Shown: positions 15,005-29,127 of the stretch, one piece after another
Numbering within the stretch: the stretch's first letter is position 1
How the letters are laid out: the number at the start of each line of letters is the position of its first letter
DNA from: Escherichia coli
Lineage (GTDB): Bacteria > Pseudomonadota > Gammaproteobacteria > Enterobacterales > Enterobacteriaceae
Assembly (NCBI GenBank): GCA_009729775.1
Contig: GCA_009729775.1_4081.1
Direction: 5' to 3' (one strand)
DNA: 64,000 nucleotides
The notes under the pieces: model-generated
What the model saw: only the letters and a program-made list of their open reading frames with translations
Database searches by the model: none
What the model was told of the DNA's origin: nothing
Program-made: the position numbers and the translations under genes

Positions 15005-15032
15005 TTTGTTTCTATGCGTATATAATAGCAAA

Positions 15033-15061: not shown

Positions 15062-15068
15062 ATTCTTT

Positions 15069-15218
15069 TTAAACTTGTTTTGGGTTGCGATATGTGATAG
15101 CGTTCGGGTACATTTGTTTAATGTTATTCCATGCCTGGTTAACATTGTAACCACTTGAGCGAATCAGTTGGTTACTACCGACACCTTGAAACACTACTTC
15201 GAATAAGAATTCTTTCAT
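15069..15218 (-). CDS. small protein (49 aa), not in ORF track
   Basis: Hand translation MKEFLFEVVFQGVGSNQLIR...; GAGGTGA RBS; ATGA overlap with upstream ORF. Confidence 0.45.
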   Translation of the reverse strand: MKEFLFEVVFQGVGSNQLIRSSGYNVNQAWNNIKQMYPNAITYRNPKQV

Positions 15219-15388
15219 GCTTTCACCTCGCGATCTGCTTTACCTTTACGCCACGCTGTTGCTAATTGTTCGCGTTGCCATAAGTCGAGTGATACGTAAA
15301 GTTTTGCATTATCACCCTTCGGATACTCGCCAGTAGTACCAATCCGATAAAACAGATCTTTCAGTACTGATAATTCCACCTGGATCAT
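15215..15388 (-). CDS. small protein (57 aa), not in ORF track
   Basis: Hand translation MIQVELSVLKDLFYRIGTTGEYPKG...; AGGAG RBS; coupled to flanking ORFs by ATGA overlaps. Confidence 0.45.
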   Translation of the reverse strand: MIQVELSVLKDLFYRIGTTGEYPKGDNAKLYVSLDLWQREQLATAWRKGKADREVKA

Positions 15389-15477
15389 TGTATTACTCCT
15401 GATTGTGTTAGTACTTCTACGATGGCATGAATGATCATAAGTACAGCTAACACAACAATCATCGGATTCATTTGCAT
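15385..15477 (-). CDS. small hydrophobic peptide (30 aa), not in ORF track
   Basis: MQMNPMIVVLAVLMIIHAIVEVLTQSGVIQ; AAGGAG RBS 7 nt upstream. Confidence 0.35.
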   Translation of the reverse strand: MQMNPMIVVLAVLMIIHAIVEVLTQSGVIQ

Positions 15478-15496
15478 AAGCTGTACTCCTTATATA

Positions 15497-15709
15497 TTAA
15501 TCTTTCAGCCAATGATCTTGAATGAATTTTTCACAGAATCCCTGTTTCATAGATTCTAACAGGCGTTCACGGTGAGCGGCGGCATATTGCTCAGTACTAT
15601 GCGTTACGCCAGGTTGATAACGTGAAACACCGTCTGGTCCGATATATTGAACATCCCACGGTTTTTCGTTAGTATCAGACCATTTACGAACGATTAGTTG
15701 ACCTTGCAT
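15497..15709 (-). CDS. hypothetical early protein (70 aa)
   Basis: AGAGGA RBS; ORF track. Confidence 0.6.
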   Translation of the reverse strand: MQGQLIVRKWSDTNEKPWDVQYIGPDGVSRYQPGVTHSTEQYAAAHRERLLESMKQGFCEKFIQDHWLKD

Positions 15710-15792
15710 GTTTCTTTCCTCTTAGTGGGGAGAATCATTTCTCCCCTTCATGTAACTTATTATACAGTACTAGATTACATTGTCAATAGTTT

Positions 15793-16116
15793 TTATTCAC
15801 CTTGTTTGAATATAGTTTTCTCCATTGATTCCATGATTGCAACCAATACAGCATGGATCTCACTTAACGCGGCATCACTAAAAGCATTAATGAATAGGCA
15901 ATCATTCTCGCGAATATTTTTAATGTACTTATCAGCAGTGGTTGCGAATTCATTCAACGGCAGATCAAATGCTTTATCCCATAATGGATGGCGTAACTGT
16001 AACAGTACTGGATTATCACGGTCACCAGGTGAGAAAGTGCCTGTAATGAAACATACACCAGGGATACTTTCGAATTGACAACGAACTTCTTTTGTGATAG
16101 TAGTATGAATATACAT
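15793..16116 (-). CDS. hypothetical early protein (107 aa)
   Basis: AGAGGA RBS; ORF track. Confidence 0.6.
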   Translation of the reverse strand: MYIHTTITKEVRCQFESIPGVCFITGTFSPGDRDNPVLLQLRHPLWDKAFDLPLNEFATTADKYIKNIRENDCLFINAFSDAALSEIHAVLVAIMESMEKTIFKQGE

Positions 16117-16143
16117 TTATTTTTATCCTCTATTAAATTAATA

Positions 16144-16332
16144 TTACAGTTTATGAATCAATTCTTTATCCAAGCGATAGCGAACATTATTGATTGTAAC
16201 TGCATTGTTTTTAATGCTACGCTGTACAGGTCCACCAGCAATAACAAACGTTGCCTTATTGCCCCGAACGATGATAGCACTTCCAGGATTACCGAAATCA
16301 TCTTGTACTAAAATGCTTGATAAGTTTTGCAT
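16144..16332 (-). CDS. hypothetical early protein (62 aa)
   Basis: AAGGAAAG RBS; ORF track. Confidence 0.55.
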   Translation of the reverse strand: MQNLSSILVQDDFGNPGSAIIVRGNKATFVIAGGPVQRSIKNNAVTINNVRYRLDKELIHKL

Positions 16333-16411
16333 TTGTCTTTCCTTGTAGTGGGGAGAACTATTCTCCCCTTCATGTAAACAATTATACAGTACTGAAAACT
16401 AATTGCAAGTA

Positions 16412-16768
16412 CTATGATAAAATCATTATAGGATATTCACTATCAATCAGTACTTCAAAACCAAAACTTTCATACCATTCTTTAAGATTAAATGAGTTAT
16501 CTTCTCCCGTATCGCATTCTAAGATGATACAATCTGAATCATCGGCCGCATCAATAAAGGCATTCATTAATTCAGTACCTTCACCGTTACCGCGATTATC
16601 GGGATCAACATAAAGAGAATCAATAAACGCTACACGATCATAATCAAGATCTGGTGCAACAATGCCACGTTTAACAAACCAGTACTGCAATTGTGCTACT
16701 TTGCCTTGTACTTGATAGCCAGTGATCTCACCATTGTCTGTAGTACGCGTGATATGTTGTATACCCAT
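16412..16768 (-). CDS. GNAT-family N-acetyltransferase-like protein (118 aa)
   Basis: RGNGEGTELMNAF matches the acetyl-CoA-binding motif A pattern R-x-x-G-x-G of GNAT enzymes. Confidence 0.5.
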   Translation of the reverse strand: MGIQHITRTTDNGEITGYQVQGKVAQLQYWFVKRGIVAPDLDYDRVAFIDSLYVDPDNRGNGEGTELMNAFIDAADDSDCIILECDTGEDNSFNLKEWYESFGFEVLIDSEYPIMILS

Positions 16769-16831
16769 GATTTCAATCCTCAGTTAAGATATAAAATATT
16801 ATACACTAACTAACAGTACTGTCAATACTTT

Positions 16832-17089
16832 TTATCTCATAGATCTATGCCAACAATTACGCGGTTGACGTTTAAAAATACTATCATGATCCTCCTGGCA
16901 AGTTATGCAGTACTTACATCCCTTAACGGCCTGGCGACGTTTCTCAGGGATTATATCACCGCAGTCGAGGCAATGTATCAGTGATTCTATTTGTGCGTTA
17001 ATTTGCGTTCTAGCGTGGTTAACAGCGGCCTGAATCACTGCGTTAATCTCGTCTTGCTCGGCCCCATCTTTCGTGAATCCTACAGCCAT
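16832..17089 (-). CDS. TraR/DksA-type C4 zinc-finger protein (85 aa)
   Basis: C-x2-C ... C-x2-C (CLDCGDIIPEKRRQAVKGCKYCITCQ) with RR, characteristic of the TraR/DksA zinc finger. Confidence 0.55.
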   Translation of the reverse strand: MAVGFTKDGAEQDEINAVIQAAVNHARTQINAQIESLIHCLDCGDIIPEKRRQAVKGCKYCITCQEDHDSIFKRQPRNCWHRSMR

Positions 17090-17334
17090 TATTTTAACCT
17101 CATTATAAAAATACTATAGTACTGTAATGCGACAATAATATTACTTGTTCTTACTTTTTCCAATCCACATGATACAACATATTCATCCCCATATGTTCGA
17201 AACGAAACACCATGAAAATTTTTATACACTTGCACTTCTAATCATAACCTTTTGTCTAACCAACTGCGTAGAATTATACTACTTTACGCAAATTGATCAA
17301 GTATTGATCAGATCATTTTTTGATCAATATTATA

Positions 17335-17363
17335 CAGTTACATTTGTGCACCCTATGGGTTAG
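17335..17363 (+). repeat. conserved 28-bp intergenic motif (copy 4, variant)
   Basis: CAGTTACATTTGTGCACCCTATGGGTTAG. Confidence 0.6.
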
Positions 17364-17420
17364 TGCCTTGTGTCCGGCTTATGTACTTATTATACAGTAC
17401 TTGATGATATTGTCAATAGT

Positions 17421-17618
17421 TTATTTTAATTTTTTTCTGTCATTGATTAATGCTTTCAGTACTATACTAATAACTTGCAATGATTCATCAATGACTATAA
17501 AATTATTTTCTTTCATTAGATGATAGTTACCATTGATTGTATATTCTAATGAGTACTGTTTACGTTTAATTTTTGATAATGTATCAATTTGTTTTTGTAC
17601 TGATTTCATGCTAATCAT
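17421..17618 (-). CDS. hypothetical protein (65 aa)
   Basis: ORF track only; weak RBS. Confidence 0.35.
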   Translation of the reverse strand: MISMKSVQKQIDTLSKIKRKQYSLEYTINGNYHLMKENNFIVIDESLQVISIVLKALINDRKKLK

Positions 17619-17723
17619 TGTTAAACGTCCTGTAATGCATTCTAACGAGATAAACGGTTTAGTACTGGCATTGTATAGGGTAAATGATTAAAGCCCACCA
17701 GCGTTAACCAGTGGGCTATAATC

Positions 17724-17867
17724 TTACATCTTGCGGATAATCTTAACAGTATCTTTCACCGATTTACCGTCTTGCTGACATTGTTCGATCATCGCGTATT
17801 GTTCTGCGGTCAGATCCTCGCCAGTTTTTGCCAGTACTGCGTCGATGAATGAATCCAGTGCGATCAT
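17724..17867 (-). CDS. small protein (47 aa), not in ORF track
   Basis: Hand translation MIALDSFIDAVLAKTGEDLTAEQYAMIEQCQQDGKSVKDTVKIIRKM; AGAGAG RBS. Confidence 0.45.
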   Translation of the reverse strand: MIALDSFIDAVLAKTGEDLTAEQYAMIEQCQQDGKSVKDTVKIIRKM

Positions 17868-17966
17868 TTTATTTCTCTCTTAGGTTAAGTTAACTACTGT
17901 TGATAAAAGTTATTATACAGTACTATCAAACATTGTCAATAGATTTAATAGTACTGGTAATATATT

Positions 17967-18146
17967 TTAGCGGTAATCGTCGTATGCTTTATTAACCTGG
18001 CGAATGTAACTTTCAAAGGCTTCGTCTACCGTTTCATACTCCCGAACATAATCACCATAGGAAACTACATACATCCCTTTTTGATCTTCAAACGTCATGA
18101 TGATAGAATCCAGTCCGATGATTTCAGTTTTTGCGATAATAGCCAT
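17967..18146 (-). CDS. hypothetical early protein (59 aa)
   Basis: Start adjusted to MAIIAKTEII... Confidence 0.55.
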   Translation of the reverse strand: MAIIAKTEIIGLDSIIMTFEDQKGMYVVSYGDYVREYETVDEAFESYIRQVNKAYDDYR

Positions 18147-18237
18147 TTTAGTATTCCTTAAATTAATATGCGTTGTCTTGATAAAAGTTATTATGCCAGT
18201 ACTATCAAACGTTGTCAATAGTACTGTGATAATATTT

Positions 18238-18450
18238 TTAGTTAATGATAGTCAGTGTAAAATTGTAATCCCCTGCCTGGTATAGTACTTTATCGCCGAA
18301 CGTGCCAACACGTTTCATATTGCAATAGATACCCATAACATTTTTTACATCTTTGATATTCCGAACGCCAGTGATATCCTTGTTGAAATTTTCATGATCA
18401 GAAAATAAAACTTGTTTTGCATTTTTCAGTACAGTGCAGATATTAGCCAT
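18238..18450 (-). CDS. hypothetical early protein (70 aa)
   Basis: AGAGAG RBS; ORF track. Confidence 0.6.
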   Translation of the reverse strand: MANICTVLKNAKQVLFSDHENFNKDITGVRNIKDVKNVMGIYCNMKRVGTFGDKVLYQAGDYNFTLTIIN

Positions 18451-18550
18451 TTCGATTTCTCTCTGTTAGTAGGGAAGTACTGTTACTTCCCGTGCCTTGA
18501 TGTAAACTATTATACAGTACTATAATCTATTGTCAAACTATTTTTTAATA

Positions 18551-18892
18551 TTATTCAAAATCTTCTGGACCGGACTGATAATCATCCTCACCGTATGCAC
18601 TTTCTAACTTCTCGCCAGTGTAATCATCAGTTAGTGAGTCATCCTCATAGTTCACGTCTACGCCCGTGATGTAAAACTGGCTATCGTCTGGATCATTGAA
18701 ATTAATTTTCTGAATGTTTACAATAACTGTATTGATACCCAGGACACAGCCATCAGCCGTTACAAAGTACTGATATTTTTCACATCCACCACTATTGAAA
18801 CCGTAATTGATTTCGGCCCGACCATCATTTAAACGCAGTGCCTGAGCGATGATTTCGTTTTCAAAGTTAGATTGAGCAATTGCAATAGTCAT
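18551..18892 (-). CDS. hypothetical acidic protein (113 aa)
   Basis: AAGGAAA RBS; acidic C-terminus. Confidence 0.6.
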   Translation of the reverse strand: MTIAIAQSNFENEIIAQALRLNDGRAEINYGFNSGGCEKYQYFVTADGCVLGINTVIVNIQKINFNDPDDSQFYITGVDVNYEDDSLTDDYTGEKLESAYGEDDYQSGPEDFE

Positions 18893-19025
18893 GATTCGTT
18901 TCCTTATTACCAGGGGAAACCGTTTCCCCTTGCGATGTAAAACATTATACGCCTATTGATATAGTTTGCAAGTACTTTTTATCAAATACTTTAAAATAGT
19001 TTTCAGTACTCAATCATTATACAAT

Positions 19026-19053
19026 AGATACACTTATGCACCCTGTGGGCTAG
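19026..19053 (+). repeat. conserved 28-bp intergenic motif (copy 5)
   Basis: AGATACACTTATGCACCCTGTGGGCTAG. Confidence 0.7.
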
Positions 19054-19087
19054 TGAGCTATCTCTCAATGAATACATAATAGCAAAA

Positions 19088-19115
19088 TGGCTGACCGAAG
19101 TCAACCACTTTTTTT
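19088..19115. terminator. stem-loop cassette GGCTGACCGAAGTCAACC plus T-run
   Basis: Variant of the cassette that recurs at 45-60 kb. Confidence 0.55.
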
Positions 19116-19252
19116 CATTTATTTTTAGCTTTTAGAATCGCCGCCTTTCGCGTCATGCCTTGCTTGATGTACTCCTTTACTTTCGCTTTACGTGCTTTCG
19201 CTTTATCTGCTTTCGTTTTAGGAGTACTGTAAATTAAACCGTTAGGATTCAT
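19115..19252 (-). CDS. small Lys/Ala-rich protein (45 aa), not in ORF track
   Basis: Hand translation MNPNGLIYSTPKTKADKAKARKAKVKEYIKQGMTRKAAILKAKNK. Confidence 0.4.
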   Translation of the reverse strand: MNPNGLIYSTPKTKADKAKARKAKVKEYIKQGMTRKAAILKAKNK

Positions 19253-19342
19253 TTAAATCACCATAAAGAATAGATAGGTTACTAACAATGCCGCCAGTAC
19301 TGCACCGACCAGGGCCGAACTATAGTAAGCTAATGATTTCAT
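19253..19342 (-). CDS. small hydrophobic peptide (29 aa), not in ORF track
   Basis: MKSLAYYSSALVGAVLAALLVTYLFFMVI; start overlaps stop of 19339-19491 (ATGA). Confidence 0.3.
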   Translation of the reverse strand: MKSLAYYSSALVGAVLAALLVTYLFFMVI

Positions 19343-19491
19343 TTTTTAGCCTGAAAGTAATGTTTAATTTGTGCGGCGGTCAGTGCACAATTACGCAGGA
19401 AGTTTTCTGTATAACTTTTACGAGTACTGAAAGAGTACTGACCTTTCCCGTTACCGATAGTAACATCAAACCGAGCGTTATATTGTTTCAT
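19339..19491 (-). CDS. hypothetical early protein (50 aa)
   Basis: Start adjusted to MKQYNARFDV... Confidence 0.5.
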   Translation of the reverse strand: MKQYNARFDVTIGNGKGQYSFSTRKSYTENFLRNCALTAAQIKHYFQAKK

Positions 19492-19559
19492 TTTGTTTCT
19501 CCTAGTATCGGGGAGAACCATTCCCCCCCTCTATGTAAACAATTATACAGTACTGAAAA

Positions 19560-19880
19560 CTAATTGCAAGTACTTTCTAAGTAATGTTTATAAGCTGAAT
19601 CAACCACTCTTTCGATAACATACGCTAACGGCACGTATCCAACTACATGACTACAATAAAAAGGACTACGATTAGAATCATCGTATGCAAATACTTTTTC
19701 AGGATCTGCATCAATCACATACATATTAACCTTTAAGATGTCTATCTTATCCTGTACAGTAAGCATATTACGCCGCCTTATCAGTACTGGCAACCGGACG
19801 GATACGGGCCATTTCATGGGCTTGTTCCACACTGTAACGCTCATAAAGGCGGCATTCTTCCGGTGTAGGAACAGCATCAA
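19560..19880 (-). CDS. hypothetical protein (up to 106 aa; start uncertain)
   Basis: Track ORF begins at a TTG; internal ATG at 19766 has a GGCGG-type RBS. Confidence 0.45.
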   Translation of the reverse strand: MMLFLHRKNAAFMSVTVWNKPMKWPVSVRLPVLIRRRNMLTVQDKIDILKVNMYVIDADPEKVFAYDDSNRSPFYCSHVVGYVPLAYVIERVVDSAYKHYLESTCN

Positions 19881-19989
19881 TACGTTTCATTGGTTTAATG
19901 ATGCTTTCAACTTCATTCAGTACTTGATTAACGTTCATGGTATAATCCCCAATATAAGCGGCCTAAATCGACCGCTAACGATGTTTTGA

Positions 19990-20259
19990 TTAATAGGTGT
20001 ATGGTTGACGCTCAAACAATGATTGCACGTTGTACGCCCCGCTAATGGGCTTTGCTGGCAAATCAATTTTATATTGTTCACGCTTAAAAATAATAAAACG
20101 GCAATTGTTTTTAACATCAAAATTGATTGAACGTTCCAATAGCTTTCCTTCGTGTACAAATACAAGATAACCGCTTGCTACTTGTTTTGTAGTACTGGTT
20201 GCAACCATTGACCGACGAACATGAGTACCTGCATCGATTAAAGTACTGATATTTTTCAT
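19990..20259 (-). CDS. hypothetical protein (89 aa)
   Basis: AGAGGA RBS; ORF track. Confidence 0.6.
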   Translation of the reverse strand: MKNISTLIDAGTHVRRSMVATSTTKQVASGYLVFVHEGKLLERSINFDVKNNCRFIIFKREQYKIDLPAKPISGAYNVQSLFERQPYTY

Positions 20260-20339
20260 TTTACTATCCTCTTAATTTGATTTAATTTCTTTCCCCTATG
20301 CAGACACTATATCAAAGTATCTGCATAAAGTAAAGCTAA

Positions 20340-20684
20340 TTAAAGATCTTTTTTGCGTTTAACATCAGTTACCGAACTGTAAACAGTGATATTATTGTCA
20401 CGGCAAAAACGGGAAAGATAAGAACCGCGTAAAAACTCTTTATCTTCCATATTAATAACCTTGCTAAATTCTTCCATTGCTACAGTGTCAAAGTGATCCC
20501 CGTATCCATATTGGAACGGCACGTTTACTACTTCAATAAAATTACCATCAATTTCTACGTCTACACTTAAAGAGAAATAAGTGTTACCATATGAAGCCTG
20601 GAACCAACGCCGAGCGGCAATATGTACAACTTCAACAGAAGACAGGTTGATATTTTGTGCTGAGATAGTGTTGATGTTAGCCAT
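20340..20684 (-). CDS. hypothetical protein (114 aa), paralog of 13716-14039
   Basis: GNTY, YGYG, VKRKKD motifs. Confidence 0.65.
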   Translation of the reverse strand: MANINTISAQNINLSSVEVVHIAARRWFQASYGNTYFSLSVDVEIDGNFIEVVNVPFQYGYGDHFDTVAMEEFSKVINMEDKEFLRGSYLSRFCRDNNITVYSSVTDVKRKKDL

Positions 20685-20770
20685 TTTAATTTCCTCTTAG
20701 TTGTCTTGATAAAATCTATTATGCCAGTACTATCAAACTATGTCAATAGTACTGTGATAATAATTTTACT
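20685..20770 (-). promoter_or_regulatory. 85-bp promoter/RBS cassette, duplicated at 20980-21065
   Basis: Near-identical sequence including TTGACA-type promoter, RBS AGAGGAAA and ATG. Confidence 0.6.
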
Positions 20771-20978
20771 TACTTTGCTTTGATGCTTTATGTTGTGCAA
20801 CTGCCATCACTACATCAGCACGAACAAAGTTAGCAACCGTATCAGTATAATATTTGATTGCATCGTCAATATCTGCGAACATCCGATACATTCCGCACCA
20901 TGATACTTTATAACCCGCTTTCACTTGTTCCAGTTTAACCAGTGAATTGTTTACTTTGATTTTTGTAATGATAGCCAT
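20766..20978 (-). CDS. hypothetical protein (70 aa)
   Basis: AGAGGAAA RBS. Confidence 0.6.
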   Translation of the reverse strand: MAIITKIKVNNSLVKLEQVKAGYKVSWCGMYRMFADIDDAIKYYTDTVANFVRADVVMAVAQHKASKQSK

Positions 20979-20979
20979 T

Positions 20980-21065
20980 TTTGTTTCCTCTTAGTTGTCT
21001 TGATAAAATCTATTATGCCAGTACTATCAATCTATGTCAATAGTACTGTGATAATAATTTTACTT
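20980..21065 (-). promoter_or_regulatory. 85-bp promoter/RBS cassette, second copy
   Basis: Direct repeat of 20685-20770. Confidence 0.6.
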
Positions 21066-21203
21066 ACTTTTTGCTTTCTTTATTGCTTCCACCTGGTCGG
21101 CCCACTCTTTACCCCATACTTGAGCGTTATAGTGATACTGACAAAGAGCAACGCCCCGTTTCAAACCAGTGATAGATTTTTTACCACATTGACAAGTTTT
21201 CAT
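21060..21203 (-). CDS. small Cys-rich protein (47 aa), not in ORF track
   Basis: Hand translation MKTCQCGKKSITGLKRGVALCQYHYNAQVWGKEWADQVEAIKKAKSK; AAGAGGAAA RBS; possible Zn-binding C-x-C...C-x-Y-H. Confidence 0.45.
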   Translation of the reverse strand: MKTCQCGKKSITGLKRGVALCQYHYNAQVWGKEWADQVEAIKKAKSK

Positions 21204-21288
21204 TTTTAGTTTCCTCTTAGTGGGGAGAATCATTTCTCCCCTTGATGTAATGTATTATACTTTATCCGATTTACTTTGCAAGTACTTT

Positions 21289-21516
21289 TTAGTTTAATTC
21301 ATCCAGGCATAAGATACGATCTACGCCGAGATCCGTTAAGCTAATGGTTGGCACTTGATAGGTTTCAATGTATTCTACACTAGCCCACTGACCGAACTCA
21401 TTCACCGCCCAGGTATTCATTGCAAAATGTAATTCCGCACCTTTCTTATTAGTAATTACAGCAACAGTAGAAGAATTGCCAGTAGTACCAGATACGCGAG
21501 TGATTACGATAGCCAT
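21289..21516 (-). CDS. hypothetical protein (75 aa)
   Basis: AGGAA RBS; ORF track. Confidence 0.6.
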   Translation of the reverse strand: MAIVITRVSGTTGNSSTVAVITNKKGAELHFAMNTWAVNEFGQWASVEYIETYQVPTISLTDLGVDRILCLDELN

Positions 21517-21586
21517 TGTTTTGATTCCTATTCAGTAGTTGATGTATGTATTATGTCAGTACTTAAAACTATTGTCAAACTATTTT

Positions 21587-21739
21587 TTAAAGACTATCTA
21601 CGATAGCTGCCGTTTCAATAATAGACTTACCTTTTTTTGAACATGCAATAACTGCTTTAAATTCCTTTGATGACCATTCTTTTTTACTGCATACTAACAT
21701 TACTTGCATAGTGAAACAATCCAGTTCATAAGTATTCAT
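21587..21739 (-). CDS. small protein (50 aa), not in ORF track
   Basis: Hand translation MNTYELDCFTMQVMLVCSKKEWSSKEFKAVIACSKKGKSIIETAAIVDSL; GAGGA RBS. Confidence 0.4.
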   Translation of the reverse strand: MNTYELDCFTMQVMLVCSKKEWSSKEFKAVIACSKKGKSIIETAAIVDSL

Positions 21740-21960
21740 CTTTAAATCCTCAGTTAGTTAAGGTGTCTTGCCTTGATGTAACTAATTATACGCCTTTCTC
21801 TTAATCGTGCAAGTACTTTTTATTACTTTTTGCAAAATACTTTAAACGCTCTCAATCGCATTCTAACGGCCTTAACTCCACCAGCTAGGGCGATGCATCA
21901 GATAATCAGTTTAATGCGTTAGAATCGATTCTATGAGGTGCTGACGGTCTGGAATGCAAT

Positions 21961-21993
21961 AAAAACAAAAAAGCCCACTGCTTATAGTGGGCT
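21961..21993 (-). terminator. rho-independent terminator
   Basis: AGCCCACT-loop-AGTGGGCT hairpin with long U-run on the minus strand, after the stop of 22015-22497. Confidence 0.7.
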
Positions 21994-22014
21994 AGTGATT
22001 CAGTACTTTAAATG

Positions 22015-22497
22015 TTATGCTTCAATTTTGCGGTGAGATTCGATCCATTCCTCGCGAGTCATACCGCTTTCTTTGATAGCATCCAGTACTACCGCAATGC
22101 AGTTACCGCGTACAGGAATCAAATGTTCTTCCCCGTTATCAAGGACAACCGTAACACGTTCTTGAATCCATTTTTTAGGCTTAGATTCCGGCTTATCTTC
22201 ACCGTACTTAACCGCCAGGGCTTTATGTGCCATTTCAATAACCACTTCCAGATCTAAACCAGACACCGCCGCCTGAATACTTTCTATTGTTGCTTGCAGT
22301 TCTGCTTCACGGGCTTTTTTCTGTTCTTCCAGTTCTGCTACCTTTTTGGCTTGTAGTTCTTTCGCTTCACTGTAAGCAATGTTAAAATTGTTGCGTACTG
22401 CTTTCATGGTATCATTATCCAGGTCAGCCAGCAATTCAGCAGCAATCACAGTATCGTTAGAAATCAGTGCTTTCAGAAATGATTTTACATTAGCCAT
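22015..22497 (-). CDS. putative H-NS-like nucleoid-associated protein (160 aa)
   Basis: Start adjusted to MANVKSF... (GAGGA RBS); N-terminal coiled-coil-like region, C-terminus LDNGEEHLIPVRGNCIAVVLDAIKESGMTREEW parallels the H-NS DNA-binding core [34 protein letters not shown]. Confidence 0.4.
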   Translation of the reverse strand: MANVKSFLKALISNDTVIAAELLADLDNDTMKAVRNNFNIAYSEAKELQAKKVAELEEQKKAREAELQATIESIQAAVSGLDLEVVIEMAHKALAVKYGEDKPESKPKKWIQERVTVVLDNGEEHLIPVRGNCIAVVLDAIKESGMTREEWIESHRKIEA

Positions 22498-22684
22498 TTT
22501 ATAAATCCTCAATTAAAGTTTAAGTTAGTTTATCAAAGTTTGTTTGACGTGTCCAGTTTTTCATTCGACTTACTGGCGGTCTACTTAATGTTCCCCGTCT
22601 TGATGTAATACATTCTACGCTTTTCCCTGGTAATGTCAACTACTTTTTTAAAACTATTTTCAAAGTATACCAGTACTACGATAA

Positions 22685-22720
22685 TACAAAAACAAAAAAG
22701 CCCACTGTTTAAGGTGGGCT
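22685..22720 (-). terminator. rho-independent terminator
   Basis: AGCCCAC-loop-GTGGGCT hairpin plus U-run on minus strand after 22738-23037. Confidence 0.7.
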
Positions 22721-22737
22721 AGTGATTCAGTACTAGA

Positions 22738-23037
22738 TTATAAACAGTTAATTACTCCGGTGTGCGTTACTTTCTCAGTATCCATCACAGTGACCGAACC
22801 GCGTTTAGTACTGGCATCATAATAAATTGTTGTGCTACCGTTTTTGTCTTCTTCATGGAACGGGCCGTTTTTAAATGCTTCCGGCTGGATCTCTAAATCC
22901 TTTAATACAATCTCGCCAGTTCTTTCATCGGTCATTGCAACAGTGCACTGAATGAATTTTTCACTACTTACATCTAATGACGCATTAACAGCGAAAGAGG
23001 AAACAGATAAAGCCAGGGCGATGATTGCAATTTTCAT
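22738..23037 (-). CDS. secreted small protein with signal peptide (99 aa)
   Basis: N-terminus MKIAIIALALSVSSFAVNAS; AAGGATA RBS. Confidence 0.6.
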   Translation of the reverse strand: MKIAIIALALSVSSFAVNASLDVSSEKFIQCTVAMTDERTGEIVLKDLEIQPEAFKNGPFHEEDKNGSTTIYYDASTKRGSVTVMDTEKVTHTGVINCL

Positions 23038-23121
23038 TTGATTATCCTTAGTTACCAGGGGGAACCGCTCCCCCTTGCTATGTAAAATATTATACAGTAC
23101 TAAAAACTAATTGCAAGTACT

Positions 23122-23358
23122 TTATGATTTTTTATAAAACATTTCGGCAGTGATATTTTTACCCGTTGGCTGTACTTTATCCAGAATTTTTTGATGCCCT
23201 GGCCGTCCAAATGAATATGATCCGTAAACCGTAAACCAGTAGTTACCCTCAGTGTTTACATGTACAGCACAATAGGGAACGCCCCGCGATTCATCACTAG
23301 TAAAGTGTGCTACCGTTCCCGTTACATTCGAAGTCGTTGATTTGATTTGTTCAAGCAT
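23122..23358 (-). CDS. hypothetical protein (78 aa)
   Basis: AAGGAATA RBS; ORF track. Confidence 0.6.
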   Translation of the reverse strand: MLEQIKSTTSNVTGTVAHFTSDESRGVPYCAVHVNTEGNYWFTVYGSYSFGRPGHQKILDKVQPTGKNITAEMFYKKS

Positions 23359-23466
23359 TTTCTTATTCCTTAGTTACCAGGGGAACCGCTCCCCTATGCA
23401 AAACATTATACGCGTTTAAAAACTATTGTCTAGTATTTTAATAAAAAGTATTTGAAAAATAGTTGT

Positions 23467-23495
23467 TGACAAGTGCATCCAGTACTGGCATAATA
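23467..23495 (+). promoter_or_regulatory. plus-strand sigma70-type promoter driving a short non-coding transcript
   Basis: TTGACA-N17-CATAAT on the plus strand; no plus-strand ORF follows. Confidence 0.45.
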
Positions 23496-23519
23496 CTTAC
23501 ATAAAGACGAGATAGTCAC

Positions 23520-23548
23520 TAACCCACAGGGTGCATAGATCCGTCTAT
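23520..23548 (-). repeat. conserved 28-bp intergenic motif (copy 6, inverted orientation)
   Basis: Plus strand reads CTAACCCACAGGGTGCATAGATCCGTCTA, reverse complement of the core. Confidence 0.65.
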
Positions 23549-23565
23549 TAAATGATTCAGTACTG

Positions 23566-23593
23566 CAAAATAAAGGGGATCAATTGATCCCCT
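23566..23593 (-). terminator. rho-independent terminator
   Basis: Perfect palindrome GGGGATCAATTGATCCCC followed by U-run on minus strand after 23599-23820. Confidence 0.7.
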
Positions 23594-23598
23594 CTGTA

Positions 23599-23820
23599 TT
23601 ACTTAGTAAGGTATAAACAGAAGTCACCTTTATTTGCTACGCCGCCAGTGTAACGCGATGAATAGTTAGAAACGTCCTGGACTTCTGCTATTACCAGTGT
23701 ATCATCATTCAATTCGTCGCAGAAGCAAACGGCTGGATCTTTTACGCCGATATTGTCGGCATGTTCCCGCATAGATTTAACCAGTGCTTCAAGTTGGGAA
23801 AGAGTAGTGATATTAGCCAT
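23599..23820 (-). CDS. hypothetical protein (73 aa)
   Basis: Start adjusted to MANITTLSQ...; GAGGAAAA RBS. Confidence 0.6.
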   Translation of the reverse strand: MANITTLSQLEALVKSMREHADNIGVKDPAVCFCDELNDDTLVIAEVQDVSNYSSRYTGGVANKGDFCLYLTK

Positions 23821-23907
23821 TTTATTTTCCTCATTACCAGGGAGAACCATTTTCTCCCCTCTATGTAAACCATTATACAGTACTAAAAACTAATTGCAAG
23901 TACTTTT

Positions 23908-24111
23908 TTAATTTAATTGCTTTAAAACATACTCAAAGACACCACGCACATCATTGATCATCGCCTGGCGGTTAGCAGGTAACGCATCAGGATCGCCACT
24001 ATCCCAGGCATTGATAAAACTCCCCAAATCATGATAGATTTTATTCTGTAAGCCGATCAACTGCAATTCTTTTTCTTCAAGCTCTTTGATACGTTCAATT
24101 AAATCACTCAT
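23908..24111 (-). CDS. hypothetical protein (67 aa)
   Basis: Start adjusted to MSDLIERIKELEEK...; AAGGA RBS. Confidence 0.55.
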   Translation of the reverse strand: MSDLIERIKELEEKELQLIGLQNKIYHDLGSFINAWDSGDPDALPANRQAMINDVRGVFEYVLKQLN

Positions 24112-24128
24112 TATATAATCCTTAGTAC

Positions 24129-24410
24129 TTAATTGTAAGATCCGCAACGGTCGCAGTAGTGCCCCTCGTCATCGTCAACGAATTGACCAACGAAATTATC
24201 TACTTTCGCTTTCAGGTTATTATAATCGTTTTCTACTTCCTTTAAACGCTTCTGGTAGTATTCCAGTGCTTTAAGATATGCCGCATCAGTAGTTTTCTCC
24301 TGCATAGCTAAATTCATGCCACGCGTTTCATCATAAAGCCAATAACCATCAGTACATTGGCTAATAGACAATGACTTGCTTAACACTGTATAGTTAATTA
24401 CTTTGCTCAT
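24129..24410 (-). CDS. hypothetical protein (93 aa)
   Basis: Start adjusted to MSKVINYTVL... Confidence 0.55.
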   Translation of the reverse strand: MSKVINYTVLSKSLSISQCTDGYWLYDETRGMNLAMQEKTTDAAYLKALEYYQKRLKEVENDYNNLKAKVDNFVGQFVDDDEGHYCDRCGSYN

Positions 24411-24500
24411 TAGATAACCCTCAGTAAAGGCGGGAACCACTCCCCGCCTCGATATAAAGTATTATACGCTTTTAAACTTAGTATGCAAGTACTTTTTAAA

Positions 24501-25112
24501 TTAATATGCGATAGATTCTACTACATCGTCGATAACGTTAAATTGATATTCGTTACCCTCAATCAGTCCTACAATGTTTTCAGTAGTAAACTGGTCTTCA
24601 TAAGCATTTTCTAAATCACGGTACAGCTTACAAGATAATTCTCGGATAGTATCAGTCAGTAAGTTTTCCAGATCCTCAGCTAATGCAGCCTGTTTTACAG
24701 TTAAATCAGTGTAGCGAGTATCAACGCAACCGCCTACCGTGTTTTCGTGAGCGTAGCGTGATTGGGAACGTTCTACACTCATTTCCAAATCATCTTCGTT
24801 CAACAGGTGACGGATGGAACGATATTTCGTTAACGCCTTAACCTTGCGTAAAAACTTCTCAGCGTCAACGTGGTCAGTACTGATTGATGCACCGTCACCT
24901 TGCGACCAAAAACCACTGTATTGCAATTCAGCTTCATCTATGCCGTATTCTGGCAGTACTGTTTCTTTATAGTATTCCAGTACTGATTCAGCAAAGAAAT
25001 TATCCTCACTTGCACGTTCCCGATCCCGAACCAGTTCGATAGCCGCCGCTTGTTGTTCTGCGTTCAGTTCAGAAAAATCCATAACGAAAGTAGTAGTAGT
25101 GATAGTTTTCAT
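24501..25112 (-). CDS. hypothetical acidic protein (203 aa)
   Basis: GAGGG RBS; ORF track. Confidence 0.65.
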   Translation of the reverse strand: MKTITTTTFVMDFSELNAEQQAAAIELVRDRERASEDNFFAESVLEYYKETVLPEYGIDEAELQYSGFWSQGDGASISTDHVDAEKFLRKVKALTKYRSIRHLLNEDDLEMSVERSQSRYAHENTVGGCVDTRYTDLTVKQAALAEDLENLLTDTIRELSCKLYRDLENAYEDQFTTENIVGLIEGNEYQFNVIDDVVESIAY

Positions 25113-25180
25113 TTTGTAACCCTCATTCAGTAGTTGATGTAAGTATTATACGCTTTTAAAAACAATTGTCAAACTATTTT

Positions 25181-25256
25181 ATCAGGGGAGTTTTTCGTGT
25201 GCCTTACTCCTGGGCTACTTAACGGGAAGTTACTTATTTCGTTCCCCGTCCTGATG
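25181..25256 (-). promoter_or_regulatory. two-hairpin leader element between tandem promoters (copy 2)
   Basis: Near-identical to 14596-14668. Confidence 0.5.
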
Positions 25257-25325
25257 TAAAACATTATACGCCTTTAAACATAGTTTGCAAGTACTTTTTG
25301 AAAATAGTTTTTATCTCTTTCATAT

Positions 25326-25353
25326 AGATACATTCCCGCACCCTATGGGCTAT
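25326..25353 (+). repeat. conserved 28-bp intergenic motif (copy 7)
   Basis: AGATACATTCCCGCACCCTATGGGCTAT. Confidence 0.65.
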
Positions 25354-25411
25354 CGCCTTGTGTCCGGCTTGTAAGTATTATCTCACTAAGCCGGATAACG
25401 GTCAAGTACTT

Positions 25412-25678
25412 TTATTCAAGTACTGCAATCTTTTTAGTACTGTATACAGTAACGCGGTTGCCCTTTCGGTCGTGCTTTATTTCTACCACTCGACGCGATA
25501 CACTATCAGGACTTTTTAAAACCGATCTCCAGTACTGAATTGATCGGGCTGTACTTTGCTTTACTACGGCCCAACGTTTACCACGTTCAGAATGTACGCC
25601 CATATCTTTAAACGTCGCCCCGTCCTGGCGTGCGGCAATCCGAGCAAGTTCACGCGTTGCAAAGTATATAATATTCAT
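25412..25678 (-). CDS. hypothetical protein (88 aa), paralog of 13221-13616
   Basis: Start adjusted to MNIIYFATRELARI...; shared IKHDRKGNRVTVYS block. Confidence 0.6.
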   Translation of the reverse strand: MNIIYFATRELARIAARQDGATFKDMGVHSERGKRWAVVKQSTARSIQYWRSVLKSPDSVSRRVVEIKHDRKGNRVTVYSTKKIAVLE

Positions 25679-25760
25679 GCTGTTACCCCTATCGTTGTTG
25701 TATAAAAGAAATCTATTATAAAGTACTATCACCGTGCAATAGTACTTTTAATCTATTCTC

Positions 25761-26000
25761 TTACATTCCAACCATCGCCGCACGGATCGCAGTAGTGCTA
25801 TACTTAAAGCCGTCCGGTGTTTTATCTTGTCCAGTCTGTTCTAAAAATAGCATCATATGACGGGCCGCATCATTACGATTAGTGTTAGCGGCAATAAAGT
25901 CCTGGGCCAACCGGTATAATGATTCGTCGTTATTAATCCAAAGGCTTACATTCCATTGAGTTTTGTTTTTGTGACCTAAGAACATTTTTGATTTAGCCAT
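25761..26000 (-). CDS. hypothetical protein (79 aa)
   Basis: Start adjusted to MAKSKMFLGHKN...; AGAGGA RBS. Confidence 0.55.
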   Translation of the reverse strand: MAKSKMFLGHKNKTQWNVSLWINNDESLYRLAQDFIAANTNRNDAARHMMLFLEQTGQDKTPDGFKYSTTAIRAAMVGM

Positions 26001-26093
26001 TTTTTTAATCCTCTTATATAGTGGGGAACTATTCCCCACCTGATGTAAAACATTATACGCTTTTAAACTTAGTTTGCAAGTACTTTATTAAAC

Positions 26094-26456
26094 TTATTCG
26101 TAAATCTTTCCACTATCAGCCCATACCAGGAAACGAGGCATATTATCCCATGCATCTTGTTTTAAATTTAAACCGTGTAATACTTCTGTACTTTCCATTC
26201 CTGGTACTGGTTTACTATACACCGCGAACATTTCGCCCATGTACTGATAAGCCATCGTTAAATCACTGGCGATCATCTTATGAATCATCGCATCAAGCAT
26301 CACGGTAGCGGCGTATTGTTCACGCTTAAGCGGTAACATTGCAATAAGTTCCCGATAAGCTGAAATGTGAATTTTTACCGTTTCAGCCGGAAGATCTTTC
26401 ATCTCTTCACGGAAGTTAACCAGGTTAGCAATAATTTTAGTGATTTGAGTAGCCAT
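26094..26456 (-). CDS. hypothetical protein (120 aa)
   Basis: Start adjusted to MATQITKIIANLV...; AGAGAG RBS. Confidence 0.6.
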   Translation of the reverse strand: MATQITKIIANLVNFREEMKDLPAETVKIHISAYRELIAMLPLKREQYAATVMLDAMIHKMIASDLTMAYQYMGEMFAVYSKPVPGMESTEVLHGLNLKQDAWDNMPRFLVWADSGKIYE

Positions 26457-26762
26457 CGTTTTAATCTCTCTTAAAGTGTAGCGGGAAGTGTTCCCGCTCT
26501 CGATGTAAAACATTATACGCCTATCGGGATAGTATGCAAGTACTTTCTACTAATACTTTTAAAATAGTTTTCTTTCTATATAGGAGTACTATCATTCAGT
26601 ACTGAATCAACCAAATCACTACTATACCCCATAAAACGGCCTCAGCCGCTTTCTAACGCATTAATACACCTAAGCTATACATTTGCACCGCCACCAGCTA
26701 ACCAGGGCTTTATAGGCCGTTTAAGGGCGTTAAATTATTTTCAATTATTTTGTTTTTAGCTA

Positions 26763-26790
26763 TTGACTCAGTACAAAAAAAGCGTATAAT
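26763..26790 (+). promoter_or_regulatory. plus-strand sigma70-type promoter in non-coding hub
   Basis: TTGACT-N16-TATAAT; no ORF downstream. Confidence 0.45.
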
Positions 26791-26977
26791 TACTACATAG
26801 ACGCGAGAAAGCGGATACCCCAGGGGGTGGGAAGATCCGTCCAAAATTCATATAATTTAAAAAGGATACACTCCCGCACCTTAGCAGGTCATAGCACTTT
26901 CTCAGTACTGAATCATAGTACCATAGTACGCCCCTGGATGGCAAGCAAATTAATTAAAACTTTTTACATCCAGGGTA

Positions 26978-27005
26978 TTGCTTTATTTTTCCAGTACTGT
27001 ATAAT
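26978..27005 (+). promoter_or_regulatory. plus-strand promoter-like element in non-coding hub
   Basis: TTGCTT-N16-TATAAT followed by motif copy 8. Confidence 0.35.
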
Positions 27006-27029
27006 AGTTTCATCAAGTCGAGAAAGACT

Positions 27030-27057
27030 CAAGCCCACCGGGTGCATAGTTGTATCT
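27030..27057 (-). repeat. conserved 28-bp intergenic motif (copy 8, inverted orientation)
   Basis: Plus strand reads CAAGCCCACCGGGTGCATAGTTGTATCT. Confidence 0.65.
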
Positions 27058-27102
27058 AAAATTCAGTACTGAATTATTTTTTAAAAATATCCATCCAGGC
27101 GG

Positions 27103-27131
27103 TTGACATATCCATCAAAAAGATAGATAAT
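27103..27131 (+). promoter_or_regulatory. plus-strand sigma70-type promoter reading into the iteron block
   Basis: TTGACA-N17-GATAAT; followed by GGGGAAACCATCCCC hairpin. Confidence 0.45.
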
Positions 27132-27224
27132 GATTCCAGATTCAGAAAAATCTAACTCCAGATACTGCGGGGAAACCATCCCCACGCGGTAGGGGAACTA
27201 TTGGAAAAAACAAAATAAAAATTT

Positions 27225-27400
27225 TGATTTAGCCGTCTGTACTTCCAGACGTGTAACCATCTAGCCGTTTAGCCGTCCAAACGTCTAGCCATCCAGCCGC
27301 CTAGAGGGATAGCCATCTTTACTTCCAGACTTCTGGAGGGCTAGACATATCTACGTCCAAAATCCACCCAGGGTAACTACGCCCAAAATCCGTCAGTACT
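27225..27400. repeat. iteron-like cluster of short direct repeats
   Basis: TAGCCGT/TAGCCAT repeated at least 5 times, ACTTCCAGAC twice, CCAAAATCC twice, within about 180 bp of non-coding DNA. Confidence 0.6.
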
Positions 27401-27942
27401 ATACTATAGATCTATCTTTTGAAAGGGAGTATTCAGTACTGCCACAATAGCCCTCACTGTTACTGTAGGAGGATGAAGACTATCATGTAGTACTGAATAC
27501 TGTTAGAGGGAATCCACCAGCTTGTGCTGGTGGCATAATGCATTAGATTAAAATCAGTACTGACACCATTCTGTTAATATCAGTACTGTTTATATTACGA
27601 AAAAAGAGGTTATAAAAAGATGTACCACCCATAGGAGGAACTATCCTTTCAGTACTGTCTCACGACAGGAGGTAGAGTGAATGAATTGTTTGCGGCAACT
27701 CATCTCTCTATGTAGAACATTATACAGTACTGAATCATAATGTCAATAGCTTTCTTTCATTATTCAGTACTGAAATCGTATAATCTGTATCGCTACAAAA
27801 CTCATTATATCCCACAAATCCTATATGTCCCAACGTAAATTTCAACTTTCGAAGATCCAACTTTTATTTCATAGGTACTCCAAATTTTTTACGATCCAGA
27901 TTTAGGATGGAGTACTAACCAACTTTTTGCTGGAGCCTCAAG

Positions 27943-27990: not shown

Positions 27991-28009
27991 GTGAAAGTAA
28001 TAATTCAGT

Positions 28010-28260
28010 ACTAATCATTGCGTGATTACTTTTGATTACATTTGATGTAATTTGCAAAATGGAAAAGGAGCTTGGAAACTACAAAGTACGGCAGACTTCC
28101 TCTGCCTACTTAGTGGCATATCAGTACTGCTACGTTCTTGATTAAACGTGAACATTCCTGTACTCTAGTACTCACTACTGATCACTACAGTGATTATAAA
28201 TGATTACTTAAATGTTTATATATGATTACTTATGACTACCTATGATTACGGGGTTTAGCC
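28010..28260. repeat. cluster of TGATTAC heptamer repeats
   Basis: At least 7 copies of TGATTAC (or TGACTAC) in about 250 bp of non-coding DNA. Confidence 0.55.
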
Positions 28261-28363
28261 TGGGGAGAATCCTAGTGATCGCATTTGTCCAGGCTGAATT
28301 TTAACAATTCGCCTGTACATAAAGGTTGTTCACTAGGAGCTTCCCCTGTCTACTTGTGTTTAA

Positions 28364-28555
28364 TTACTTCCTATATATAAGCATTAAGATATAGTAGTAC
28401 TGATTATACTGTACATTCTCTTTAATATTATAAGGGTCTATCGCAATCTCGGTACATCTGTTAAATGCATATCTATTAAATGCCAGTGGAATTATAGATC
28501 TAATCCATACTTGTTCATTTTCTTTTAGTTTACTTATATAGAAGTTTTTATACAT
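28364..28555 (-). CDS. family-C small paralog (63 aa)
   Basis: One of about 10 tandem about 65-aa ORFs; MYKNFY start, C-terminal LIYRK. Confidence 0.5.
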   Translation of the reverse strand: MYKNFYISKLKENEQVWIRSIIPLAFNRYAFNRCTEIAIDPYNIKENVQYNQYYYILMLIYRK

Positions 28556-28570
28556 AGTATTCTCTATTAA

Positions 28571-28753
28571 TTAATATGATAGTACTAGTGTTAGTACTGA
28601 GCACAATTGTTCTTTATAGTTCTTAGGGTATATAGAATCTTTTATGCACTCATTGAAGTGCCATAGGTATAATCTTGGGTCGCATTCTTTATATATTCTT
28701 ACGGGGACGAATGTTAGTTTTCGTATATAGAATTCTTTATGTTCTTTATTCAT
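28571..28753 (-). CDS. family-C small paralog (about 60 aa)
   Basis: Start adjusted to MNKEHKEFY... Confidence 0.5.
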   Translation of the reverse strand: MNKEHKEFYIRKLTFVPVRIYKECDPRLYLWHFNECIKDSIYPKNYKEQLCSVLTLVLSY

Positions 28754-28754
28754 A

Positions 28755-28943
28755 TTAGTACCTGAATATAAGTAGGATAGTGTTATATAGCTGGTCATAT
28801 GTACTACTATTTTCTATACTTCGTTCTATGCAGTTATTGAATCCCAGTACTGCCAAATCGTTATCCAGGGGGACTTTGTATCTGGCGTAGTGTTCAAAAA
28901 TGCTGGGGAGAAATTGTTTGTAGTATTCTTTGTGGTTATTCAT
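28755..28943 (-). CDS. family-C small paralog (62 aa)
   Basis: MNNHKEYY start. Confidence 0.55.
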   Translation of the reverse strand: MNNHKEYYKQFLPSIFEHYARYKVPLDNDLAVLGFNNCIERSIENSSTYDQLYNTILLIFRY

Positions 28944-28944
28944 A

Positions 28945-29127
28945 TTAGTACCTGAATGTTAGCATTACTACGTAGTACAGCATATATGGATTATCATCGT
29001 ATATGAGCGTGTACTTAGTACATTGTTGGAACATTATCTTTGCGTGATCTTTTATTCCTATTGGTTCTGTTGGTATATGGTGCTGGAGATGCATAGGGAT
29101 TTTATCCCTGTAGTATTCTTTATGCAT
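28945..29127 (-). CDS. family-C small paralog (about 60 aa)
   Basis: Start adjusted to MHKEYYRDK... Confidence 0.5.
   Translation of the reverse strand: MHKEYYRDKIPMHLQHHIPTEPIGIKDHAKIMFQQCTKYTLIYDDNPYMLYYVVMLTFRY

Follow-up and report, generated by a model that had tools for sequence, protein, structure and literature searches.

Does a jumbo phage encode its own H-NS-type protein, and what would such a protein do in a host whose H-NS silences AT-rich foreign DNA? This question is raised by a single open reading frame (ORF) in a 64,000-nucleotide stretch of Escherichia coli assembly GCA_009729775.1 (contig GCA_009729775.1_4081.1), hereafter the window, for which an earlier note had proposed a phage-encoded H-NS-like protein of 160 amino acids. 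The ORF is present exactly where it had been placed, at positions 22015-22497, and lies on the minus strand, starting with ATG at 22497 and ending with TAA at 22015-22017 (MANVKSFLKAL...ESHRKIEA). Its product, the query of all searches described here, matches gp277 of Escherichia phage 121Q, annotated as "hypothetical", at every residue (100% identity) and is 82-97% identical to other Asteriusvirus orthologs, which are always annotated as "hypothetical protein". The comparisons described below make it very probable that this protein is a genuine homolog of the H-NS family.

Evidence for the relationship came from profile-profile comparison with hhalign, in which alignments of the phage family (20 members, later 27, 22-100% identical to the query) were compared with an alignment of 14 H-NS proteins comprising chromosomal H-NS and divergent IncH and IncX plasmid paralogs. 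The two families matched with probabilities of 92.2%, 93.8% and 94.6% (expect [E] values of 6e-7, 1.8e-7 and 6.5e-8), and the alignment was collinear over 87-117 columns, running through helix 3, the Gly-turn, helix 4, the linker and the whole C-terminal domain. Compared separately, the C-terminal domains matched each other with P 2.2e-5 (probability 76%) and the N-terminal domains with P 4.7e-4, whereas crossed controls, in which N-terminal domains were aligned with C-terminal domains, gave P 0.06 and 0.33. Reversed profiles scored 12-16, and none of the 100 column shuffles carried out per comparison reached the observed score (maxima of 17.8, 14.9 and 15.2 versus observed scores of 48.1, 26.0 and 24.8, of which 26.0 belongs to the C-terminal pair and 24.8 to the N-terminal pair).

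Some searches with single sequences, and the search with an H-NS model, agreed with this result. Two orthologs from Klebsiella phages, K64-1 gp430 and Muenster gp011, scored 27.1 and 25.5 bits over residues 12-71 against the Pfam model Histone_HNS_N (PF22470), the gathering threshold of which is 24.5; they are 38% (tblastn E 5e-9) and 37% (tblastn E 2e-11) identical to the query, respectively. When a hidden Markov model (HMM) built from the 14 H-NS family proteins was run against the 584 stop-to-stop ORFs of the window, the query ranked first, with E 0.018 versus 1.0 for the runner-up. Pairwise BLASTP aligned query residues 88-152 with residues 74-134 of E. coli H-NS at 27% identity (E = 0.001 in a single comparison). 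The C-terminal string that had been likened to the H-NS DNA-binding domain, LDNGEEHLIPVRGNCIAVVLDAIKESGMTREEW, corresponds to residues 119-151, and both this BLASTP alignment and the hhalign comparison of the C-terminal domains agree with that likeness. Against seven MvaT/MvaU proteins, hhalign gave P 0.15 for the C-terminal domain and P 0.002 (probability 13%) for both the N-terminal domain and the full length. Membership in the MvaT family was rejected on the lack of profile similarity in the C-terminal domain, and the query family appears, as judged by sequence, to be related to enterobacterial H-NS and not to MvaT.

The AlphaFold2 model of the query (mean predicted local distance difference test [pLDDT] score of 83) contains two domains separated by a flexible linker. 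The N-terminal, oligomerization-type domain (residues 1-97; 22207..22497, minus strand), identified from the model, hhalign and the PF22470 matches of the orthologs, is predicted to consist of helices 2-12 and 16-23, a long helix 28-77, a turn with the invariant Gly80 (GLDLE) and a helix 83-97, and hhalign placed residues 24-88 on H-NS 19-77 and G80 on H-NS G69. A Lys/Glu-rich helical stretch, which the earlier note had described for the N-terminal region, spans residues 43-75. The linker (residues 98-113, YGEDKPESKPKKWIQE; 22159..22206, minus strand) is weakly basic, contains a KPESKPKK patch and has low pLDDT, with a value of 59 for residues 101-110. The C-terminal, H-NS/MvaT-type domain (residues 114-160; 22018..22158, minus strand) is predicted to form a beta-hairpin (strands 114-118 and 124-128), a loop and two helices (135-144 and 148-155). 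In the model, the order of the elements appears to be the same as in H-NS, and their sizes roughly so: helices 1-4, linker, beta-hairpin, loop and two helices, the H-NS layout being that of structures 3NR7, 1HNR and 2L93. Foldseek ranked the H-NS DNA-binding domain 1hnr second among 350,542 chains (43 columns, 23% identity, E 1.5). H-NS-family DNA-binding domains were placed at rank 1 and rank 2 by two different fold-search programs, with scores that are weak in absolute terms because the C-terminal domain has only 47 residues. The proposal of a phage-encoded H-NS-like protein thus agrees with the profile-profile comparison, the Pfam matches of the Klebsiella-phage orthologs, a database note on StpA discussed below, the predicted structure and the fold searches. 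The results also support a likeness to H-NS that goes beyond the one originally proposed, since the N-terminal domain is H-NS-like too.

The predicted DNA-contact loop is one place where the phage family and H-NS differ. The H-NS core TWTGQGRTP (T-W-T/S-G-Q/R-G-R-x-P, with the AT-hook-like Q/RGR) aligned without gaps with LIPVRGNCI of the query, and of this core only Gly113 is kept (G131), with Arg at the position of Gln112. The codons for Arg130-Gly131-Asn132, the predicted minor-groove loop, lie at 22102..22110 on the minus strand and align with H-NS Gln112-Gly113-Arg114. Besides Met1, the only residues invariant in the 27 members are Gly80, Gly131 and Asn132, and Gly122, Arg148 and Ile152 are near-invariant. 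Gly131-Asn132 align with H-NS Gly113-Arg114, with Arg114 replaced by the invariant Asn. In MvaT, Asn100 (loop KGGNH) superposes on H-NS Arg114 and enters the minor groove within an "AT-pincer", and the N100A mutation abolishes repression (PMC4466236). The alignment places Gly-Asn of the phage family at the position equivalent to MvaT G99-N100 and H-NS G113-R114, and the MvaT lysine network is absent; the family thus appears to pair a loop of H-NS length with an MvaT-like Asn. A possible equivalent of MvaT Arg80 (the Arg arm) is R114 or R130 of the query. Conservation was 39% in helices 1-2, 41% in the turn and helix 4, and 41% in the C-terminal domain, versus 26% in helix 3 and 22% in the linker, as would be expected of a protein that works through two oligomerization surfaces and a ligand-binding head. 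The invariance of G131-N132, G80 and G122 across six or more phage genera or lineages points to functional constraint.

A number of results weigh against H-NS homology or against DNA binding by the query. The Pfam search with the query produced no H-NS match and sub-threshold noise only, the NCBIfam search produced nothing, a phmmer search of PDB sequences did not retrieve H-NS, and the query did not match PF22470 at E <= 10; P0021, a relative of 66% identity, reached only E 0.22 against this model. None of the 27 family members matched PF00816 (Histone_HNS) at E <= 1. A full-length HMM of 14 family members retrieved only noise from the PDB sequences (ApeA, designed helical proteins and ClpX) and no H-NS chains, and a C-terminal family profile retrieved only actinohivin and ApeA as noise, and not H-NS. 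Foldseek of the full-length model against the PDB found nothing significant, which we attributed to the flexible two-domain model and the tiny targets; the C-terminal domain was therefore modeled alone. The H-NS DNA-binding residues W109, T110, G111, R114 and P116 are not conserved in the phage family. Basic linker residues matter for H-NS DNA binding, and the net charge of the linker plus the C-terminal domain is -3 in the query and -5 to +4 in the family, versus +2 to +5 in H-NS (n=14) and +3 to +8 in MvaT. A profile match to the H-NS C-terminal domain, named beforehand in the earlier note as the test of its proposal, was thus absent when sequences were compared with an HMM (PF00816, 0 of 27) and present only at the profile-profile and fold levels. 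Since it neither matches PF00816 nor carries the QGR motif, the protein is not a canonical H-NS family member and represents a divergent, phage-specific H-NS subfamily with a Gly-Asn head.

By ordinary annotation standards, the query is an orphan. Its PHROG placement was phrog_27871 and, more distantly, phrog_20181, both labeled "unknown function", and it also matched phrog_206 (head scaffolding proteins) weakly (E 7e-4). E. coli H-NS itself sits in phrog_10171, which is labeled "unknown function" as well, so that PHROG-based annotation is unable to name H-NS-like phage proteins; the query matched this profile weakly and in register (E 0.32, residues 27-86 on profile positions 9-74). Prior hints at H-NS consist of database notes only: the K64-1 ortholog is labeled "DNA-binding protein", and the GenBank record of Muenster carries an HHpred note of a match with 97.2% probability to NP_417155.1, an accession that we checked and that is StpA, the E. 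coli H-NS paralog. Within the literature library searched, no paper, including a large comparative study of jumbo phages, ties H-NS to RaK2-like, Asteriusvirus or Alcyoneusvirus phages. Separately, family profiles repeatedly showed, for residues 105-160 (window 22018-22185), a weak, non-significant similarity (E 0.04-0.3) to residues 282-338 of PDB 9hxd, the antiviral defense protein Ec2ApeA; the pattern shared by the family and this segment, W-x-x-E-x-[IV]-V-V-x-x-NGE-x-I-x-I, may be due to chance.

The gene has the signals of an independent transcription unit. A sigma70-type promoter (TTGACA-16 nt-TAGAAT, 11/12 matches) lies at 22612..22639 on the minus strand, ~115 nucleotides 5' of the start codon, and a ribosome-binding site identified from the sequence (GAGGA; 22506..22510, minus strand) lies 8 nucleotides before the ATG. 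On the same strand, 22 nucleotides past the stop codon, is an intrinsic terminator (21962..21993, with the hairpin and T-run at 21972-21993) that has an 8-base-pair stem containing 5 G-C pairs. Orthologs were found by tblastn in 51 phage records, and the ratio of nonsynonymous to synonymous substitution rates (dN/dS) between the query and the phAPEC6 ortholog was 0.15. The ribosome-binding site, promoter, terminator, orthologs and dN/dS value together indicate that the ORF is a real, constrained gene and not a chance ORF. A near-identical copy of the terminator at 22699-22720, minus strand, closes the gene upstream, and the H-NS-like gene is a monocistronic, self-contained transcription unit with a host-type sigma70 promoter. 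The terminator copies are parts of two near-identical ~35-nucleotide elements that flank the gene on the minus strand at 21972-22006 and 22699-22733 (GTACTGAATCACTAGCCCAC...GTGGGCTTTTTTGTTTTT); each consists of the terminator hairpin with the same 20-nucleotide leader, and exactly two copies occur in the window. An Hha-like partner gene next door, as on IncX plasmids, was ruled out, the flanking ORFs having no informative Pfam match, and no second paralog of the H-NS-like protein was found when the H-NS-family HMM was run against the 584 window ORFs.

The family is small, as an exhaustive phmmer search of 1.84 billion representative proteins returned only 12 clusters at E <= 1e-3, and a word-indexed profile search added few further members. 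The inspected metagenomic contigs with members look like phage DNA, with small ORFs arrayed on one strand and no Pfam matches, and the family appears to be phage-specific. It was present in all six RaK2-like jumbo-phage genera or lineages sampled. Among isolates, members were found in Asteriusvirus, Alcyoneusvirus (RaK2, K64-1 and Muenster), Mimasvirus (CBB and XbC2), Eneladusvirus (BF and the pEa_SNUABM phages), the Munch/SE_PL/7t3/fENko-Kae01 group, and EJP2, Hallingskeid, Kaldavass and Xanthomonas phage XaC1. The hosts of these phages include Escherichia, Klebsiella, Salmonella, Erwinia, Serratia, Pectobacterium and Xanthomonas. The orthologs of a Xanthomonas phage and an Erwinia phage are 90% identical to each other, which suggests that the conserved target is DNA or self-association and not the H-NS of one host.

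The position of the gene in the phage genome is also conserved. Orthologs such as BF_0001, XbC2_1, CBB_3 and Munch_006 lie 2-7 kb from the start of their records, and wherever a terminal repeat is annotated (CBB, Muenster, fENko-Kae01 and vB_Ec-M-J) the ortholog is within that ~20-kb direct repeat; in BF and XbC2, which have no repeat annotated, it is ~2 kb from the record start. The ortholog of fEgEco12 is found 6.1 kb into the genome, and restriction digests confirmed the 20,993-bp repeat of this phage (PMC13070987). The gene is present twice wherever an assembly includes both repeats. Around the H-NS-like gene, a minus-strand array of small genes (13600-27800) contains 11 perfect sigma70 promoters (TTGACA, 16-17 nucleotides, TATAAT; 12/12), all on the minus strand, and many further 10-11/12 matches, roughly one per small ORF. 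This looks like an early-gene array for host RNA polymerase, and the density of consensus sigma70 promoters would imply early transcription by that enzyme. The guanine-plus-cytosine (GC) content is 31-39% in the window, 35.8% in fEgEco12 and 31.9% in Muenster, versus ~57.7% in the Klebsiella host. At ~28000-31000 in the window, the GC skew changes sign (from ~-0.12 to +0.15) and the genes turn from the minus to the plus strand; by comparison with fEgEco12, where 6.1 kb separate the ortholog and the left end, this region may be close to the physical end of the genome or to the repeat boundary.

This distant H-NS relative with its changed DNA-contact loop probably enables the AT-rich phage to disturb the silencing of foreign DNA by its host. 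In the mechanism that we favor, the gene would be expressed early by host RNA polymerase, and its product would self-associate through the conserved helix 1-2 and Gly80-turn/helix 4 surfaces. The invariant Gly131-Asn132 loop (Arg130-Gly-Asn here) would contact the minor groove of AT-rich DNA. Phage DNA of ~31-39% GC in a host of ~51% GC is a prime H-NS substrate, and the protein would occupy such DNA, competing with host H-NS/StpA filaments or mixing into them, and would reset xenogeneic silencing in favor of the phage. The outcome would be counter-silencing of the early AT-rich sigma70 promoters of the phage, buffering of the host H-NS pool, or both. For this mechanism as a whole, an early, oligomerizing protein that reads AT-rich DNA and counters host silencing, we estimate a probability of about 0.55.

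The same domain layout would also serve a dominant-negative poison of H-NS, in which the N-terminal domain co-oligomerizes with host H-NS/StpA, the head binds DNA poorly and the mixed filaments fail, so that silencing collapses. Such a protein, itself without DNA binding and comparable to H-NST or T7 gp5.5, is unlikely but is the strongest of the competing explanations. The N-terminal domain is indeed H-NS-like, as judged by the PF22470 matches of the orthologs and by hhalign, the linker and C-terminal domain are acidic or neutral, which differs from H-NS, and the weakly basic linker together with the loss of Arg114 and of the TWTG/P residues keeps this explanation alive. H-NS-like proteins of Xanthomonas and Erwinia are expected to differ greatly, yet 90%-identical orthologs serve phages of both, which suggests a target independent of the host and argues for a role in DNA binding. 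Phages are known to target H-NS oligomerization, as in the case of T7 5.5 (cited in PMC6606824), but a poison needs no C-terminal domain, and H-NST lacks one (PMC7074111), whereas in the phage family this domain is as conserved as the oligomerization sites and the Gly-Asn of the loop tip, the most conserved feature of the protein, is invariant. We therefore prefer DNA binding over a pure poison. DNA binding could alternatively serve stealth, with the protein acting as a working H-NS substitute that keeps host loci such as CRISPR-Cas and AT-rich defense islands repressed at a time when host H-NS is titrated by 350 kb of AT-rich phage DNA. The full two-domain H-NS architecture and the early, high-dosage position in the terminal repeat are consistent with this role, and there is precedent in the hypotheses put forward for plasmid Sfh and the H-NS of phage EPV1 (PMC7074111, PMC3097231). 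With its altered DNA-reading loop and less basic linker, however, the protein is predicted to differ from host H-NS in specificity or affinity, which makes faithful substitution at host loci less likely, and we consider this role somewhat more doubtful than the poison. It is a variant of the DNA-binding explanation, and the present evidence does not separate it from the counter-silencing that we favor.

It is very unlikely that the query is no H-NS relative at all and instead a generic coiled-coil protein, for example a scaffold or an assembly factor, whose small C-terminal domain is unrelated and whose H-NS signals are artifacts of coiled coils or composition. The weak PHROG match to head scaffolding proteins (phrog_206, E 7e-4), the lack of a direct HMM match of the query to H-NS and the weak fold-search statistics would fit such a protein. 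However, the C-terminal domain, which is not a coiled coil, aligned with its H-NS counterpart when compared alone (P 2.2e-5; composition-preserving column shuffles scored 15 or less versus 26 observed), the alignment is collinear across both domains, and the two fold-search programs ranked H-NS-family DNA-binding domains first and second. In addition, the early-gene array that contains the gene is far removed from the structural genes, and gp528, the phAPEC6 ortholog, is absent from the 62-protein virion proteome table obtained by mass spectrometry. A structural or scaffold role was rejected because the phrog_206 match is weak and the ortholog is absent from that proteome. A more far-reaching form of DNA binding, which we regard as speculative and improbable, would make the loop a third, phage-evolved minor-groove head, R/x-G-N on a loop of H-NS length, a hybrid of the AT-hook-like motif of H-NS and the AT-pincer of MvaT. 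Encoded near the genome end, the protein would polymerize on the incoming AT-rich genome as a transcription-permissive phage chromatin coat that excludes host H-NS and perhaps nucleases. If true, RaK2-like jumbo phages, which are not known to form a nucleus, would have in this protein coat an equivalent of the chimallivirus phage nucleus.

Compared with H-NS and StpA of the Enterobacterales, the phage protein has the same order of elements, a collinear profile-profile alignment and a loop of the same length, which aligned without gaps over 33 columns. Positions conserved in both are G80 (G69 in H-NS), G122 of the NG(E) beta-turn (G104), G131 (G113) and W/F151-I152 (F133-L134). Identity is nevertheless only ~16-27%, the TWTGQGRTP core has become [LIM]-P-x-x-G-N, and the charge of the linker and C-terminal domain is -3 versus +4 in H-NS. 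The phage protein is also longer (160 amino acids, with relatives of up to 248) through helix 3 and N-terminal extensions, and it is encoded by a lytic jumbo phage, unlike the chromosomal H-NS/StpA. T4 Arn/MotB, LUZ24 Mip and Ler share its likely goal of escaping or re-programming H-NS-family silencing. Of the known proteins, gp5.5, Arn and Mip have unrelated folds that bind H-NS or MvaT, and Ler keeps an RGR DNA-binding head on a different N-terminus. Escape from, or re-programming of, H-NS silencing early in infection is likely the goal of T7 gp5.5 and H-NST as well (PMC6606824); H-NST consists of the N-terminal domain only, whereas the phage protein has both H-NS-type domains. MvaT/MvaU (2mxe/2mxf) resemble the phage family in the Gly-Asn at the tip of the DNA-binding loop, but the MvaT loop, unlike the phage loop, falls short of the H-NS loop by two residues (PMC4466236), and the phage protein has no counterpart of the strongly basic MvaT "lysine network" (core charge +2 to +7). 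The plasmid proteins Sfh, Sfx and Acr2 and the H-NS of phage EPV1 are likewise full-length H-NS-type proteins on AT-rich mobile elements, and the role expected in common with the Sfh/EPV1 paralogs is modulation of xenogeneic silencing (PMC7074111, PMC3097231). However, the plasmid paralogs share 35-67% identity with H-NS and have retained the G-x-G-R/K motif, and the EPV1 protein is closely related to the hns of its host, whereas the RaK2-like phage family is far more divergent.

Several neighboring genes were also examined. The gene immediately upstream (22738-23037, minus strand) encodes 99 amino acids with a signal-peptide-like N-terminus (MKIAIIALALSVSSFAVNA) and has no Pfam match. Farther upstream, a 203-amino-acid ORF (24501-25112, minus strand), also without a Pfam match, is 45% identical to Muenster gp006 ("YeeU-like antitoxin"), and the synteny of the H-NS-like gene with this "YeeU-like" gene is kept between Asteriusvirus and Alcyoneusvirus. 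On the plus strand, eight consecutive ORFs of 358-449 amino acids (31317-41203) are mutual paralogs (23-45% identity, E down to 1e-42) and contain RCC1-like beta-propeller repeats. Similarly placed genes of phAPEC6 carry GenBank notes of RCC1 repeats, and gp003, gp005 and gp007 are listed as "DNA condensation protein" in its virion table, a label that seems to go back to nothing but the name RCC1.

H-NS paralogs gained by horizontal transfer are familiar from plasmids and genomic islands, and one phage case, EPV1, has been discussed (PMC7074111, PMC3097231). When E. coli H-NS was used as a tblastn query, no genuine phage was found among 50,697 records, suggesting that phages hardly ever carry a recognizable H-NS gene. 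AT-rich foreign DNA meets a general barrier in H-NS-type xenogeneic silencing, and the known phage countermeasures are small inhibitors such as T7 gp5.5, T4 Arn and LUZ24 Mip. What is new here is a highly diverged yet complete H-NS-type protein that is conserved in RaK2-like jumbo phages, is encoded near the genome end and is mostly annotated as "hypothetical". Should the protein bind DNA, nature would have linked the recognition modes of H-NS and MvaT experimentally in its invariant Gly-Asn head, and the protein would offer a handle on how 350-kb AT-rich phages, several of which are therapy candidates, start gene expression in H-NS-containing hosts.

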